In this document: in pieces, positions 3,230 to 38,860 of the stretch
Layout: the number at the start of each line of letters is the position of its first letter
Position numbering within the stretch: position 1 is the first letter of the stretch
Source: Escherichia phage vB_EcoM_WFL6982
Sequence record: MK373774.1
Length of the DNA: 64,000 nucleotides
Direction: 5' to 3' (one strand)
Position numbers and translations under genes: made by a program
Notes under the pieces: generated by a model
Databases searched by the model: none
What the model was told of the DNA's origin: nothing
Seen by the model: only the letters and a program-made list of their open reading frames with translations

Positions 3230-3916
3230 TTAGAAGTCGTGGGTAGAATCGGCTTCCATCGCAATAACATAACTTACTTGAGAGCTTTCAAACTTGGCTG
3301 CAACTTTATCACCAGCTCCCCACAACATTACTTTATAGTTACCTGGCTGGATTTTCATATTAGCCATATTGATTACGAAGTTAAAGTTGTTAGAACCATC
3401 ATAATCAGTAAGAGTCAAAGAATACTTAGGACGAGTCAAGCCAGAATCTTCAACTTTATTGTAACCGTTGATAACAATTTTACCATCTTTATTTGTAATA
3501 GCAATTGTATCAATCTGAAGACCGCGTGAAACTCGAAGCAATTGTTGAAGGTCTTCGGCTTTAATTTCAGTAATCACAGAAGCCATTGGGAATTGAATTG
3601 GCTTATTAGGAAAAACAATGGTGCTCTTGTCGGCAGCAGGCCAATAAACTGTGGAACGTGTATCTGCAATTTTAATATTGCCATCAGTATGCATTGAAAT
3701 TTCGGCATCATCAGACACTAGACTCAAAATGCTTAAGAAGCTATTCAAATCATAAAGTGCTACGTCAAAATCAATTTCATCAGAGATATTTGCTTCCGCA
3801 TAAGTGGTGCCATTAACTGCACGAGTCATAATAAATTTACCTTGACTCAGCAGAATGCCAGAGTTAATAGAGGCAAAGTTTTTCAGAATAGCGATAGTAT
3901 CTTTAGACAGTTTCAT
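3230..3916 (-). CDS. 45: Sliding clamp gp45
   Basis: From internal ATG MKLSKDTIAILKNFASINSGILL... 228 aa ending ...AMEADSTHDF, matching T4 gp45 length and termini. Confidence 0.95.
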   Translation of the reverse strand: MKLSKDTIAILKNFASINSGILLSQGKFIMTRAVNGTTYAEANISDEIDFDVALYDLNSFLSILSLVSDDAEISMHTDGNIKIADTRSTVYWPAADKSTIVFPNKPIQFPMASVITEIKAEDLQQLLRVSRGLQIDTIAITNKDGKIVINGYNKVEDSGLTRPKYSLTLTDYDGSNNFNFVINMANMKIQPGNYKVMLWGAGDKVAAKFESSQVSYVIAMEADSTHDF

Positions 3917-3958
3917 TTTATTTCCTTTCAAGACAATTCAAAGTTTATAACAAATTTA

Positions 3959-4375
3959 TTATGCAGCAACCATCTGCTTTTTAATAGCTTCAGGCAGTGA
4001 TTCAATATATTCTGGAATTTTAGAAGCAACAATTTCGCCAGCTGCAATTAGTTGTTCGTCGGCATCAACACAGTAGAAATCTTCCAGACGCTCAGAACCG
4101 TCTTTATCAAGAACGATTTTTGCGCCAGCTTCAATAGAATCTTTATAGTGCTTACGCATCAGATGAATCCACATATCAGATACATCGTTATCAATAAAAC
4201 CATAAATCATAAAACGAGTTTCTTGCGGCAAAGATTGGAGTTTTTTAGCACTTGCGTCATCACAATGCAGGACCCATGCTTTACGAACACGATTATGGTT
4301 ATGTGGGTTAGCGTCAGTACGGATAGAAGTAACTTTCAGATCAGCAGCAGTGAAACCTTTAGCAGTAGTAAACAT
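3959..4375 (-). CDS. rpbA: Putative RNA polymerase binding protein RpbA
   Basis: 138-aa ORF at the T4 rpbA position between genes 45 and 46; assignment by synteny and size only. Confidence 0.5.
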   Translation of the reverse strand: MFTTAKGFTAADLKVTSIRTDANPHNHNRVRKAWVLHCDDASAKKLQSLPQETRFMIYGFIDNDVSDMWIHLMRKHYKDSIEAGAKIVLDKDGSERLEDFYCVDADEQLIAAGEIVASKIPEYIESLPEAIKKQMVAA

Positions 4376-4387
4376 ATTATTTCTCTC

Positions 4388-35239: not shown

Positions 35240-35595
35240 TTTCTACATTCCTTAATAAAGTTTTCGATTGTTTCATTTTCACGTCTAGCTAGGAGTTCAT
35301 TATAACTAATCATTTGAGAAGCGTAAACCTTTTTATTTTTCTTGTTATGGTTTATAAAATCGTAGTAAAAATAGACTACAGTACAAAAGGATGCGATGGA
35401 TGCAAAGGCTTGGGTATACCGTAAGTCCTGCCATTGGTCTGTGAATCCACCAGTGTTCCCTATAAATCCTAACACAACGCCATCAATAAGAAATCCAACT
35501 AATCCAAAGGCAAATCCCATGCCGGCGCTCATGATAAAAATTAAAATATTCTCACCAAGAGAAGGCCATACGGTTAAGAGTTGAGGCTTTTGCAT
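35236..35595 (-). CDS. Membrane protein (119 aa)
   Basis: Hydrophobic helices ILIFIMSAGMGFAFGLVGFLIDGVVLGFIG and AFASIASFCTVVYFYY. Confidence 0.5.
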   Translation of the reverse strand: MQKPQLLTVWPSLGENILIFIMSAGMGFAFGLVGFLIDGVVLGFIGNTGGFTDQWQDLRYTQAFASIASFCTVVYFYYDFINHNKKNKKVYASQMISYNELLARRENETIENFIKECRK

Positions 35596-35933
35596 CTTAT
35601 TTCCTTAACGAATTCCATAGCTTCTTCATATTCATACTTTTTAACAGCTTCATCATACTGAGCTTGGGCTTTTGCGCACTGAACTTTCCACTCGCGAACT
35701 CGAGCTCTGTGATGACGGCCTTGGTGCCAATATCCTGCCCAATTAATAGGCATTAATAAAAATGGTACAATAAGTGGGGCGACGAACATTAATGAAAATG
35801 CTGCATCAGACGATATAACTTTACTAGAATCTAAAACAGCTCCTATAATCATAAAGATTAAAAATGCTAAAGCTAAAATAGGGCCAAATAGTACTTCGTT
35901 TGGGATTAATTTACGTTTGTATTCGTATGCCAA
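35574..35933 (-). CDS. Membrane protein (up to 119 aa; start uncertain)
   Basis: Track ORF begins with TTG inside the U-run of the upstream terminator; first in-frame ATG is at residue 28 with no SD. Hydrophobic helices and a basic HQGRHHRARVREWK segment. Confidence 0.4.
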   Translation of the reverse strand: MAYEYKRKLIPNEVLFGPILALAFLIFMIIGAVLDSSKVISSDAAFSLMFVAPLIVPFLLMPINWAGYWHQGRHHRARVREWKVQCAKAQAQYDEAVKKYEYEEAMEFVKEIRCKSLNS

Positions 35934-35959
35934 AAAGCCCCAACCTTTCGGAAGGGGCT
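35931..35959 (-). terminator. Rho-independent terminator (GC-rich stem, GNRA loop, U5)
   Basis: Minus strand AGCCCC-TT-CC-GAAA-GG-TT-GGGGCT followed by TTTTTG, ~50 nt downstream of the tRNA-like element. Approximate coordinates. Confidence 0.6.
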
Positions 35960-36010
35960 ATGCCTTGCGGCAACCTTGTCGGGGTTCCACCTGCTAAGGC
36001 AAGTGTTTGT

Positions 36011-36102
36011 ACGAAACGCCGGGATTTGAACCCGGTTATTAAGTAGTTGACGCTACTCAATATTTTTAAAAGGCCATATCTCGACCATATCCGAACGTTC
36101 CG
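36011..36102 (-). ncRNA. tRNA-like RNA element (canonical T-arm and 7-bp acceptor stem, no canonical anticodon arm)
   Basis: Minus strand has T-arm CCGGG-TTCAAAT-CCCGG, then 3' acceptor CGTTTCG pairing with 5' CGGAACG 92 nt upstream; the interior cannot be folded into a standard D/anticodon cloverleaf. Approximate coordinates. Confidence 0.4.
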
Positions 36103-36270
36103 TCAAAAACGCTACTCGGCTTACGGCAAAGATATTTCCTCGAATCGATAATTCTGTGCGCCGTTTCTGCTGTGATGTAAGGGGATATTAACAAATCGTA
36201 AAGATTTATTAAGACCAGTCCTTACTCAGGGAACATCAGTCCGACGACTTACCGGTAGCGACCCGGCTTC

Positions 36271-36666
36271 TTATTTTGACATATCATCAATTTGCTCTCG
36301 ACGCCGACGCCATAGATTAATCGCTTCATTAACACATTCGGCGTTTGGTATATGACGGCAATAATATAATGATTCGCGTTTCTGGAACCGATGTTGCAAC
36401 GGGATTTCGTTTAAAAGGTCTTTACGGTCAAAGTATTCAAAACTAGTTAACCCAGAACGATTTTTAAGAAACTTCCAATGTCCGAATTCATTTTGAAAAT
36501 AGACATAATCAGCATGCTGATACAGCGAATTAATTAACCTATCGGAAATAACTGTTTCACGTTCGTTAAAATAAAATGTTAAGTCATGAACTACCAGATA
36601 AATATTGCCTTTCATATTTTCCTCACTTAAAGTTGGTGCCTCTAGAAAGATTTGAACTCTCACCAT
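36271..36666 (-). CDS. Hypothetical protein (131 aa)
   Basis: Track ORF; start may be the internal ATG (MKGNIYLVVHDL...). Confidence 0.45.
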   Translation of the reverse strand: MVRVQIFLEAPTLSEENMKGNIYLVVHDLTFYFNERETVISDRLINSLYQHADYVYFQNEFGHWKFLKNRSGLTSFEYFDRKDLLNEIPLQHRFQKRESLYYCRHIPNAECVNEAINLWRRRREQIDDMSK

Positions 36667-36694
36667 TAACCTTAGAATGATTATATGCTATCCA

Positions 36695-37366
36695 TTACAC
36701 TATAGAGGCAATTAAATTATTTACAATATCTTCTTTATAAACTTCAGCATAATGAAGTTCATATATTTCCCATCCTAATGATTTTATAATATCATGGCGT
36801 TCTTTATAATAAGGGGCCAAAATCTTTTTCTTAGGATTGGAGTAATGTTGGTTTCCATTAACTTCAATAATAATCTTTTTATCTATTAAAGCAATATCCG
36901 TGCAATACGCTCGGTTTTTAACCGGTTGGTATTCTTCAATAAATGAAATTCCATTTTCTATTAATTTAGATTTCAAAAATTCACAAGGCACAGATTTAAA
37001 TTTTGTATTTTTCTTCCAAGGATGTTTATCGGGGTTTTCATTCAACCATTTTTTCCGAGCATTAGATATTTTTATTCTAGCTTCCTCAGAGTGTTCTCTA
37101 CCTAATGAAGCGGCTGACAATTTTTGTCTAGTCTCTTCCGAAATTACTACAGGAACACCAGTCTTTTTAGATACAACATACTGGTTTAAATTACCTGAAG
37201 CTATACGTGCTTTATTCATTGCTGCAATGGCTGATTTAGAACTTTCTTTATACAATTCCAATTTAGGGTTGGATTTACACCATCTAGTGTGGTTAGCCAT
37301 CCATCCTTTAGGTTTATTAGAAATATCAAATTCCATATTACAATGTTTACAAATGCTCATTACCAA
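36695..37366 (-). CDS. Putative endonuclease: N-terminal zinc ribbon plus C-terminal DUF559/Vsr-like nuclease domain
   Basis: N-terminal CKHC...HTRWC; C-terminal DIALIDKKIIIEVNGNQHY...RHDIIKSLGWEIYEL fits the D...EhxG.QH...R...GW pattern of DUF559-type nucleases. Lies next to the tRNA genes. Confidence 0.45.
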   Translation of the reverse strand: MVMSICKHCNMEFDISNKPKGWMANHTRWCKSNPKLELYKESSKSAIAAMNKARIASGNLNQYVVSKKTGVPVVISEETRQKLSAASLGREHSEEARIKISNARKKWLNENPDKHPWKKNTKFKSVPCEFLKSKLIENGISFIEEYQPVKNRAYCTDIALIDKKIIIEVNGNQHYSNPKKKILAPYYKERHDIIKSLGWEIYELHYAEVYKEDIVNNLIASIV

Positions 37367-37434
37367 TTATCTCCTATAAAATATAGGAGTATTTATTATT
37401 TGGATAGAGCACTTAATTTACTTCGTTTAAATTA

Positions 37435-37506
37435 CTGGCGCACTTGGACTCGAACCAAGATAAAGGAGTTAACAGCTCCCCGTAATAACCTTTATACGAT
37501 GCACCA
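37435..37506 (-). tRNA. tRNA-Asn (anticodon GTT)
   Basis: Hand-folded cloverleaf: acceptor TGGTGCA/TGCGCCA, anticodon stem GGGAG/CTCCT with loop CTGTTAA, T-arm CTTGG-TTCGAGT-CCAAG; no encoded CCA. Approximate coordinates. Confidence 0.7.
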
Positions 37507-37512
37507 TTTGTT

Positions 37513-37587
37513 TGGTGACCCTGGCTGGTTTCGATCCAGCTACCTATCAGTTATGAGCTGACAGCTCTCCCATTGAGCTACAGGGCC
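37513..37587 (-). tRNA. tRNA with CAT anticodon (Met, or Ile if lysidine-modified)
   Basis: Hand-folded: acceptor GGCCCTG/CAGGGTC, D-arm GCTC-AATGGGA-GAGC, anticodon stem GTCAG/CTGAT with loop CTCATAA, T-arm GCTGG-ATCGAAA-CCAGC, encoded CCA. Approximate coordinates. Confidence 0.75.
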
Positions 37588-37666
37588 TAAATAACTTTCT
37601 ATTATGAAAGGCACTTTAGAGCACCTTTGGTAATAGAGGGTATGAATTAATAATAACACATAATTC

Positions 37667-38182
37667 TTAAAGCAAATCAATCATTTTAACAGTTGGCAAA
37701 ACGATTTCTTCTTCAATATAAGCAAATTCAACACATTCAACTACACGCAAGAAATCATAATCATAATATTCAGAAGCATGACCAAGAATATCAATGAGAC
37801 CTTCTGATACTAAATATCCATTCTCATGGAACAGGTCAAATACACGCGATTCGTCTTCTTCAGATTTATTACCAAGGTCGACTTCAATATCAAAGACCTT
37901 TTTAATGAATTCTGGATAAAGCTGGTCTGAGAACAATCCTTCAACCAAGTATTCATAGATTAAAAGCGAACAATCACTGAATAGTGTATTACCACAGTAA
38001 TGTTCAGCTTTAGTGCTAGAATGACGACTCTTAAATTTCTTCAAGAGATATTTAAACTGTTGGAGCTCATGCTCTTCCACTTCAAACAATGTTTTGGTTT
38101 TATAGTTGTCACCATCATTTTCATAGGTAGTGACATCAATTACGTAACCCTTAGGAATTGTACTGCCTAAACAAATATTCAT
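37667..38182 (-). CDS. Hypothetical acidic protein (171 aa)
   Basis: Track ORF. Confidence 0.45.
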   Translation of the reverse strand: MNICLGSTIPKGYVIDVTTYENDGDNYKTKTLFEVEEHELQQFKYLLKKFKSRHSSTKAEHYCGNTLFSDCSLLIYEYLVEGLFSDQLYPEFIKKVFDIEVDLGNKSEEDESRVFDLFHENGYLVSEGLIDILGHASEYYDYDFLRVVECVEFAYIEEEIVLPTVKMIDLL

Positions 38183-38186
38183 TTAC

Positions 38187-38477
38187 TCACCGTACCATAT
38201 TAATGTAATTATATTCAATGCAACGTAATTTCAAAGGATTCTTGAAAATATCATATTCAAGAGGACCTTTTTCTGTTTCAATAAAGAAATCAAAGTTCAC
38301 ACTATTAAATTTGCGGTCTTCCCAAAGTAATTTAACCTGTGAAGATGAACGGTCGACGTAAACCTTTTCAACTTCAAAGTGGGTCAAAATACCATAGTAA
38401 TCGACTAGTGCTTTAGCTGCAGCTCGGTCGCTTTCATATCCATTCTCAACGGATTTTACCTTAGCATAAAGAATCAT
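38187..38477 (-). CDS. Hypothetical protein (96 aa)
   Basis: Track ORF. Confidence 0.45.
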   Translation of the reverse strand: MILYAKVKSVENGYESDRAAAKALVDYYGILTHFEVEKVYVDRSSSQVKLLWEDRKFNSVNFDFFIETEKGPLEYDIFKNPLKLRCIEYNYINMVR

Positions 38478-38860
38478 GAATGTTCCACCATTTCAAAGGT
38501 ATGAGCATCAACAATATGATACCAGTCAAAATTTTCTTCTGCGTTTTTATAAATTTCGCGAAGAGCTTCAACAGTTTTTCCTGTAGCAACAAGGTCGTCA
38601 ATACCGCCAAGAGGATAACAGTCACCAGCAAACAGAAGGAAATTAATAGTTTCTGTAGGTTCTGTAGGTTCTGGATGCAGAACACCATTATCATCTACTA
38701 CTTCAAAGAATGTGTAAGAAGGAGTACAAGTTTTAATCCAGGCCCATGCTTGAGCTGCTGAATCAAACGGATTACGGAATAAACGACAATCCGGGTCTTT
38801 AGAAGGATTTGCTTCAAAATCCGCATATATGTGATATTTCATTTTACTCACCTTTTGCAA
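38474..38860 (-). CDS. Hypothetical protein (128 aa) with short PTE repeat
   Basis: Track ORF; contains HPEPTEPTET encoded by a 9-bp tandem DNA repeat near 38640-38665. Confidence 0.45.
   Translation of the reverse strand: MQKVSKMKYHIYADFEANPSKDPDCRLFRNPFDSAAQAWAWIKTCTPSYTFFEVVDDNGVLHPEPTEPTETINFLLFAGDCYPLGGIDDLVATGKTVEALREIYKNAEENFDWYHIVDAHTFEMVEHS

Follow-up and report, generated by a model that had tools for sequence, protein, structure and literature searches.

A putative homing endonuclease gene with a Vsr-like nuclease fold in the segB slot of a T4-related phage tRNA cluster

The window analysed here, a stretch of 64,000 nucleotides from Escherichia phage vB_EcoM_WFL6982 (MK373774.1), carries within its tRNA cluster an open reading frame (ORF) that is very likely a free-standing mobile homing endonuclease gene. 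It is of a known kind, a free-standing phage homing endonuclease with a Vsr-like fold, and its lineage, which stands apart in sequence, is bound up with tRNA genes and physically joined to tRNA-Arg. That its specific target is the tRNA-Arg region of relatives lacking the ORF is a serious possibility, which we advance with some reserve. An earlier note on this DNA had suggested the independent insertion of a mobile endonuclease at this position, and the patchy presence of the gene, its lateral transfer and the predicted nuclease fold all support this view.

Organization of the locus and its counterpart in T4

The 3 kb around the ORF (positions 35500-38500) are 100% identical to the corresponding region of Escherichia phage vB_EcoM_WFK (MK373775.1), a Mosigvirus, and we use WFK below for the allele of the window locus, with its ORF WFK_00135. 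The ORF listing confirmed the ORF reported in the earlier note, as well as the overall observation made there, but its extent of 36695..37366 had to be amended: it lies on the minus strand, and the TTG start at 37366 was dropped in favour of the ATG at 37360, because every homologue starts at an ATG and opens with MSIC. The features of the locus are as follows.

37513..37587, minus strand: tRNA with a CAT anticodon (ARAGORN; Rfam tRNA, 59.4 bits)
37435..37506, minus strand: tRNA-Asn(GTT), variant allele Asn' (ARAGORN; Rfam tRNA, 53.6 bits)
37361..37434, minus strand: leader of the ORF, 74 nt (leader alignment and predicted fold)
37398-37412, minus strand: conserved leader box GTGCTCTATCCAAAT (leader comparison)
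37390-37397, minus strand: late-promoter-like box AATAAATA (leader comparison)
37371-37389, minus strand: hairpin CUCCUAUA-UUU-UAUAGGAG, whose 3' arm is the Shine-Dalgarno sequence (predicted fold)
36695..37360, minus strand: ORF WFK_00135, 221 amino acids and stop, putative free-standing homing endonuclease
37274..37351, minus strand: C2HC zinc finger, residues 4-29 (C4, C7, H25, C29; alignment and model)
37046..37144, minus strand: two NUMOD3-like helices, residues 73-105 (SEETRQKLSAASLG / HSEEARIKISNARKK; sub-threshold Pfam match and model)
36698..37039, minus strand: Vsr/DUF559-fold nuclease domain, residues 108-221 (predicted fold)
36634..36709, minus strand: tRNA-Arg(TCT), variant allele Arg', of the T4 type (ARAGORN; Rfam tRNA, 57.6 bits)

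All three tRNAs score above the Rfam tRNA cut-off of 29 bits. The pair described in the earlier note, tRNA-Asn(GTT) and tRNA(CAT), was recovered by both ARAGORN and Rfam, and the ARAGORN coordinates agree with the spacing of 6 nt given there; however, the third gene, tRNA-Arg(TCT), had been overlooked and is part of the unit. Indeed, the stop codon of the ORF (36695-36697) lies within this tRNA, the first 15 nt of Arg' (GCC TCT ATA GTG TAA) doubling as the final four codons and stop of the ORF. A conserved non-coding stretch at 35927-36270 corresponds to no Rfam family and is 92.8% identical to the rnaC/rnaD genes annotated in T4. A scan of the locus for sigma-70 promoters was uninformative, with 5 found against 9.4 expected.

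In T4 the order of the region is trna.4, trna.3, trna.2, seven tRNAs of which the last is tRNA-Ile, segB, tRNA-Arg, rnaD and rnaC. Alignment of the acceptor stem and anticodon loop, which are the same in both genes, identified the WFK tRNA(CAT) as the orthologue of T4 tRNA-Ile, and since rnaD/rnaC lie downstream of the ORF as they do in T4, the ORF occupies the segB slot. The comparison with segB drawn in the earlier note was thus apt, the occupant of the slot being a nuclease of a different family. The tRNA(CAT) gene is 100% identical in phages ELT1, moha and DCP548. The Asn' allele is distinct from the tRNA-Asn found in Mosigviruses of the PhAPEC2 type and occurs, in identical form and without the ORF, in STP4-a, G2285 and SEA1. 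Arg' differs from the resident tRNA-Arg of moha and PhAPEC2 and resembles that of T4. When the phage collection was searched by blastn, Arg' at an identity of at least 89% occurred in ORF-bearing phages only, and at that sensitivity no Arg' allele lacking the ORF, as expected of a genuine empty site, was present in the collection.

A predicted Vsr-like nuclease with a modular DNA-reading front end

Pfam matches to the ORF product are near or below threshold. DUF559 (PF04480) passes marginally over residues 153-212 (21.3 bits, cut-off 20.6), RAP (PF08373) falls under its cut-off (23.8 bits against 24.2), NUMOD3 matches two stretches below its cut-off (E 0.003, 17.8 bits against 20.4; match at residues 89-105) and MTES_1575 matches weakly, while GIY-YIG families are absent from the Pfam matches even at E <= 10. 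Some homologues carry precomputed NUMOD3 matches, and PHROGs returned an unannotated family together with weak 'homing endonuclease' families. The AlphaFold2 model is confident, with a mean pLDDT of 89 and values of 95-98 over the nuclease domain. The earlier note had assigned the C-terminal segment to the Vsr/DUF559 PD-(D/E)xK-like nucleases, and the model bears this out with a confident Vsr-like fold, the best structural match being I-Bth0305I, a DNA endonuclease proven to be a homing enzyme. The N-terminal module had been called a C2HC zinc ribbon. Its CxxC...HxxxC residues are indeed conserved in the homologue alignment, but the module is modelled as a beta-hairpin followed by a helix (pLDDT 93-96), and because of this geometry we replaced the ribbon by a C2HC beta-beta-alpha finger. 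The NUMOD3-like region is modelled as two helices, H75-85 and H92-108.

The family alignment gives the signature NPDKHPWK..KFKSxPCE ... D155 ... E166-V-N168-G-N-Q-H172-Y ... RHD190, in which K112, W115, K120, S123, P125, C126, K130, E143, D155, E166, N168, G169, H172 and Y173 are invariant. In the putative active site, D155, N168 and H172 are invariant, E127 is at least 90% conserved, and D190 is the majority residue at a position where several members have E, N, S, T, Y or R. Mapped by motif order alone, E127/D155/N168/H172/D190 match, in order and with similar spacing, the active-site residues E170, D196, N208, H213 and D222 of I-Bth0305I (PMC3239194). Vsr, DUF559 and 3r3p share a single clade, clade 58, in a survey of PD-(D/E)XK enzymes (PMC3424549). 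We infer from the model that the ORF product would be a DNA-cleaving, metal-dependent nuclease of the Vsr-like EDxHD type.

The link to I-Bth0305I rests on the predicted fold, since sequence searches of solved structures gave nothing useful: a profile of 40 family members had no match at E <= 10 among all PDB sequences, and the nuclease domain alone, compared with the sequences of solved structures, did not match 3R3P. Likewise, Bacillus phage 0305phi8-36 was absent from the tblastn matches of the ORF product to phage records. In BFVD, entry A7KV39 (266 aa), which we take to be I-Bth0305I, was matched by structure only, with an E value of 3e-5.

Patchy presence, lateral movement and predicted late expression

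The 3-kb region matches 846 phage records, only 9 of which cover at least 80% of it, and the ORF occurs in 38 of 50,697 phage records, about 10 of them coliphages. Rather than having orthologues in all relatives, the locus is polymorphic for the presence of the ORF among otherwise collinear phages. In the moha-type allele, found in 118 records, tRNA(CAT) is directly followed by tRNA-Arg and there is no ORF, and the 9 records of the PhAPEC2-type allele (CAT-Asn-Arg) also lack it. WFK, AV111, F2, HY126, Mizar, ZQ3, ELT1 and PTE-Eco05, the latter in frameshifted form, share the arrangement CAT-Asn'-leader-ORF-Arg', whereas DCP548 and PSD2001, a Gaprivervirus, have CAT-leader-ORF-Arg. Two further alleles have neither the ORF nor tRNA-Arg, namely the deletion form of G2285 and the CAT-Asn' form of AV115. 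Homology with the ORF-less alleles ends at the 3' end of tRNA(CAT) and restarts at the 3' ACCA of tRNA-Arg.

Several comparisons indicate that the ORF has moved laterally together with flanking DNA, as expected under co-conversion. ELT1 is classified as a Tequatrovirus and has a T4-like array of seven tRNAs, yet its block from tRNA(CAT) to Arg' is 99-100% identical to that of WFK, in contrast to the flanking genes, which are only 83% and 75% identical. The tract common to the two phages has tRNA(CAT) as its left (upstream) edge, and Arg' is the right edge of the transferred cassette. The opposite pattern is seen in DCP548, whose flanks are 93-100% identical to those of WFK while its ORF is only 76% identical, with a dS of about 2, so that DCP548 must have gained a different ORF allele independently. 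The tRNA-Arg of DCP548 is chimeric: its 5' two-thirds are of the Arg' type and its last 29 nt, comprising the T-arm and the 3' acceptor strand, are identical to those of the resident moha type. The acceptor stem of this chimera is unable to pair and ARAGORN makes no tRNA call. To judge from the sequences, a crossover appears to have fallen within the tRNA gene, and this would place the break that initiated it in the recipient somewhere from the 3' end of tRNA(CAT) to the T-arm of tRNA-Arg. The cut would thus fall within that interval, in or next to the resident tRNA-Arg gene.

Signs of selection and of decay are also found. Between diverged ORF alleles dN/dS is 0.06-0.2, and it is low across the nuclease domain; the WFK and ELT1 ORFs differ at only 5 positions with a dN/dS near 1, a comparison that is uninformative on whether the WFK copy is still active. 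In PTE-Eco05, a one-base insertion (+1 frameshift) truncates the protein after residue 66. G2285 still has tRNA(CAT) and Asn', together with the leader as far as the ribosome site, but positions 36298-37363, with the ORF, Arg' and the next gene, are missing. A homing endonuclease gene is expected to pass through invasion, selection for function, decay and loss.

The leader of the ORF has features of its own. Where WFK has the box AATAAATA, PSD2001, DCP548 and the homologues from Klebsiella, Providencia and Acinetobacter have TATAAATA, which is the consensus of T4 late promoters. Across the 7 leaders compared, whose proteins are as little as 51% identical, the ATAAATA columns do not vary. The 95-nt leader fold has a predicted energy of -22 kcal/mol (z -4.3) and places a hairpin directly after the late-promoter-like box, with the ribosome-binding site as its 3' arm. 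In all six of the leaders that were folded, the ribosome site is paired with sequence just past the promoter box, although the stem sequences differ, with a G-U pair in DCP548 and UAUCUC/GAGAUA in Acinetobacter; the Providencia leader adopts a different fold in which the AUG is covered as well. A late promoter with a ribosome-site hairpin has been described for I-TevI/II/III, segB and mobE of T4, where the ribosome site is hidden on read-through transcripts while late transcripts begin inside the hairpin and are translated (PMC2988022). By its sequence and predicted folding, the WFK leader follows this T4 homing-endonuclease design.

Taken in this way, the system would work as follows. The N-terminal C2HC finger and the NUMOD3-like helices would read the DNA sequence and the C-terminal Vsr-like domain would cut it. 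During a mixed infection, the enzyme could cleave the tRNA region of a related phage lacking the ORF, after which recombinational repair from the ORF-bearing genome would copy the cassette, that is the leader, the ORF, the linked Arg' and often Asn', and the entry of the cassette would replace the resident tRNA-Arg. Expression may be delayed to late infection, the hairpin hiding the ribosome site on read-through transcripts and the late promoter initiating within the hairpin. Arg' probably escapes cutting by its own enzyme, leaving the carrier immune, because its sequence differs from that of the resident gene and the ORF abuts its 5' end.

Other explanations have to be weighed against mobility. 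The protein could instead be an RNA-acting enzyme akin to RAP-domain proteins, which processes or cleaves tRNA precursors or host tRNAs, so that its position in tRNA clusters would reflect its substrate rather than mobility. We regard this as very improbable. The N-terminal modules seen here (zinc finger, NUMOD3, HTH, MerR) bind DNA and are of the kinds usual in homing endonucleases, the top structural match is a DNA endonuclease and the leader has the T4 homing-endonuclease design; moreover, patchy presence, frameshifted and deleted copies and sharp-edged cassette transfer would be unexpected of a useful processing enzyme. It is also quite unlikely, in our view, that the nuclease is kept primarily for the benefit of the phage and is not primarily selfish, whether by excluding co-infecting relatives, by amplifying or exchanging tRNAs against defences or by Vsr-like repair. 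SegB, which sits in the same slot and is widely associated with tRNAs, amplifies tRNA and anti-defence loci (PMC13096335), the ORF is under purifying selection, and it is always accompanied by a functional-looking tRNA-Arg(UCU). However, only a small minority of close relatives have the ORF, it is decayed or deleted in some of them, its arrival in DCP548 destroyed the resident tRNA-Arg, and there is no sign of the Vsr mismatch-recognition context. This explanation overlaps with that of a homing endonuclease, since site-specific DNA cutting would still be required.

The nuclease could also be catalytically dead, the protein being a DNA-binding regulator or a remnant, given that EVNGNQH has an Asn (E-x-N) where many DUF559 proteins have an Asp (E-x-D) and that activity of the WFK copy is an inference only. 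There is hardly any chance of this in our opinion. N168 is invariant throughout the family and is thus no lesion specific to the WFK copy, and the active I-Bth0305I also has an Asn (N208) at the equivalent position (PMC3239194), so that this is a normal residue. In addition, the putative catalytic residues D155 and H172 are likewise invariant and dN/dS is low across the nuclease domain. A mobile homing endonuclease gene remains, on all these points, the reading that we prefer.

A family associated with tRNA genes and its relation to known systems

A search of 5.8 billion proteins returned 131 relatives, in which the C-terminal ~130 residues, corresponding to the nuclease core, are kept at about 50% identity. 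The remaining modules vary and include C2HC fingers in one or two copies, HTH_23/28, MerR, NUMOD3 and C-terminal zinc or HTH extensions; such swappable N- and C-terminal modules are the build typical of homing endonucleases. By an exhaustive profile search, with clusters at 50% identity, the family comprises 534 clusters at E <= 1e-30 and 986 at E <= 1e-10. The searchable literature yielded no account of it. Its members are named in databases 'hypothetical', 'HNH endonuclease', 'homing endonuclease protein' or 'very-short-patch-repair endonuclease', and hundreds of such calls in phage tRNA clusters could be unified under one annotation.

The association with tRNA genes extends across the family. 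We checked 14 loci by hand, from phages of E. coli, Klebsiella, Providencia, Acinetobacter and Rhizobium and from seven metagenomic contigs (15-246 kb); all 14 lie in or beside a tRNA cluster and 10 touch tRNA-Arg. Among 48 IMG/VR loci, which include some near-duplicates so that the counts are partly non-independent, a tRNA lies at a distance of at most 1.5 kb in 46 and of at most 300 nt from the ORF in 35, and 19 adjoin tRNA-Arg. The commonest neighbours are Arg(TCT) and tRNAs with a CAT anticodon (17 and 10 of the 47 adjacent tRNAs, respectively). When the tRNA-Arg genes beside 10 family members were aligned, their common features were the generic ones of tRNAs only, and no common target motif is therefore evident among them.

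The closest known group is the EDxHD/Vsr-like homing endonuclease family of the I-Bth0305I type (Dassa 2009, PMC2677866; Taylor 2011, PMC3239194), which includes the Hef-type endonucleases of T4-related phages (PMC3239194). Both families have a C-terminal Vsr-like fold and may share the order E...D...N...H...D and an N-terminal region with NUMOD-type helices, and I-Bth0305I-type enzymes are also found in phages, including as free-standing genes with 5' leader hairpins. However, there is no detectable sequence similarity between them. The ORF family has its own signatures (NPDKHPWK..KFKSxPCE and EVNGNQHY), the extra invariant residues E143 and E166, a C2HC finger and a variable last Asp (D190), and it resides in tRNA clusters whereas the I-Bth0305I family resides in introns, inteins or fractured protein genes. 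Typical DUF559/Vsr proteins differ in being encoded on bacterial chromosomes, in having E-x-D and in lacking an N-terminal part made of a zinc finger and NUMOD3, and RAP proteins are RNA-binding proteins of eukaryotic organelles.

In its position the ORF resembles SegB of T4, a GIY-YIG free-standing homing endonuclease (PMC2330249; PMC13096335) that cleaves within tRNA genes and causes the tRNA region to be inherited preferentially (PMC2330249; PMC13096335). Both lie upstream of rnaD/rnaC in the slot that separates tRNA-Ile(CAT) from tRNA-Arg, and they have in common the late promoter and ribosome-site hairpin (PMC2988022), absence from close relatives and a family-wide association with tRNA genes. 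They differ in that the GIY-YIG fold is unrelated to the Vsr / PD-(D/E)xK fold of the ORF product, and the stop codon of the ORF lies inside a tRNA gene; in addition, SegB homologues show no preference for a tRNA isotype (2026 paper, PMC13096335), whereas the ORF family favours tRNA-Arg(TCT) and tRNA(CAT). Mobile endonucleases are associated with tRNA genes elsewhere as well. The tRNA region of phage T5 carries the HNH nicking/homing endonucleases F-TflI, II and IV. I-Ssp6803I is a PD-(D/E)xK endonuclease of a tRNA-fMet intron (PMC2677866). These enzymes differ from the ORF product in fold or in their intron-encoded context.

Phage tRNA genes are now viewed as counter-measures against host nucleases that cut tRNAs, and by remodelling the tRNA region of T-even phages SegB allows them to evade defences of this kind (PMC13096335). 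With the ORF family, a second and unrelated type of nuclease has reached the same niche and slot by convergence, bringing its own tRNA-Arg, which suggests that homing endonucleases turn tRNA clusters into a general platform for landing and exchange. Genes of the ORF family may thus move tRNA genes between phages. They also constitute compact, modular Vsr-type endonucleases with swappable DNA-reading modules, for which the resident and cassette tRNA-Arg alleles offer natural pairs of cut and immune sites for the study of specificity.

A broader reading joins these observations into one scheme, which we put forward as speculative and somewhat doubtful as a whole: a large unnamed lineage of Vsr-fold homing endonucleases would target phage tRNA genes, above all tRNA-Arg(UCU), each member being welded to a replacement tRNA and thereby swapping tRNA alleles across genera, with removal of the stop codon by RNase P and with GTGCTCTATCCAAAT perhaps reproducing the homing site and acting as an operator as well. 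The last point stems from the resemblance of the leader box to the D-arm of the resident tRNA-Arg in antisense, with 13 of 15 positions matching, a resemblance that was found post hoc and is statistically borderline after 12 comparisons. It is reminiscent of I-TevI, whose operator mimics its homing site, and we treat it as a lead only. In the leader fold the same box pairs with the start-codon region, and it may instead be conserved for that pairing.

The role of RNase P would follow from the position of the stop codon, which in several lineages lies 12-15 nt inside the tRNA. Cleavage at the 5' end of Arg' would strip the stop codon from the ORF mRNA, so that only unprocessed transcripts would give a normal protein, and synthesis of the nuclease and formation of the tRNA could therefore, speculatively, exclude one another. 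A stop codon within the first 15 nt of tRNA-Arg recurs in WFK, PSD2001, the Klebsiella phages and the metagenomic loci L015 and L045. In L015 the overlapped tRNA is Arg-CCT, and the protein has a different C-terminal module.

Decayed and recombinant copies of the cassette

Two related phages carry the cassette (leader, putative Vsr-fold homing endonuclease ORF and linked tRNA-Arg′) in decayed form, and in a third the tRNA-Arg gene is a chimera:

1573-1660, Escherichia phage G2285 (L012): decayed element, deletion form
about 490, PTE-Eco05 (L024): decayed element, frameshift form
2152-2227, Escherichia phage DCP548 (L009): chimeric tRNA-Arg

G2285 has kept the leader, but a 1.07-kb deletion has taken out the ORF together with tRNA-Arg′ and the gene that follows; in PTE-Eco05, an additional A within an A-run (equivalent to about 37169 in the window) causes a +1 frameshift. 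These are two decay states of the element. The DCP548 tRNA-Arg is of the cassette type in its 5′ part and matches the resident Mosigvirus tRNA-Arg at every position of its 3′ 29 nt; it looks like the product of a fossil crossover. Its acceptor stem is unpaired, ARAGORN made no tRNA call at 2152-2227, and the chimera is probably non-functional.

Genes flanking the cassette

Three neighbouring features of the window bear on its annotation:

35927-36270, minus strand: rnaD and rnaC stable-RNA genes, by similarity to annotated T4 genes
36271-36666: mechanical 131-aa ORF
37513-37587: tRNA(CAT)

The 131-aa reading would overlap tRNA-Arg; the conserved start of this RB69ORF150c-like gene is the annotated one, at 36615, preceded by GAGGAAAATATG. 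Since the gene is absent from both PSD2001 (an ORF-bearing Gaprivervirus) and G2285, and its copy in the ORF-bearing Tequatrovirus ELT1 is only 75% identical, variability extends to the slot on the downstream side of tRNA-Arg.

The WFK record labels the stretch at 35927-36270 as small hypothetical CDSs, WFK_00131 and WFK_00132, but it is the stable-RNA genes rnaD and rnaC that lie here, with 92.8% identity to the annotated T4 genes. The stretch is 94% conserved even in Gaprivervirus, where the protein genes alongside reach 73-80% identity. No Rfam model exists for rnaD/rnaC.

The tRNA(CAT), labelled tRNA-Met(CAT), shares its acceptor stem and anticodon loop with the T4 gene annotated tRNA-Ile, of which it is the orthologue. 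Most likely it is no Met tRNA and reads AUA once its anticodon is modified.

Family members in other tRNA clusters

In Rhizobium phage RHph_TM2_3B (L011), one tRNA cluster holds two family paralogues:

1995-2633 and 3795-4382: family paralogues

One comes after tRNA-Arg(TCT); the second is flanked by tRNA-Ile(GAT) and a tRNA(CAT), only 1 nt from the downstream tRNA.

Other putative mobile nucleases (a NUMOD3-containing ORF, a SegE-like GIY-YIG and an HNH) and further RNA genes accompany family members in other tRNA clusters:

L014 2002-2655; L016 1-266; L017 4330-4908: adjoining putative nucleases
L030 (IMG/VR contig 3300021165_004379) 1009-1339: tmRNA-like gene, called by ARAGORN
L059 2776-2851; L060 2569-2653: suppressor-anticodon tRNAs (CTA called 'Pyl', TCA called 'SeC')

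With such nucleases beside family members, tRNA clusters seem to be general hot spots where homing endonuclease genes settle. The CTA and TCA anticodons may signal stop-codon-recoding phages. The tmRNA-like gene, with the ARAGORN tag peptide AQQQKALIT*, adjoins a family member inside a phage cluster of 13 tRNAs.
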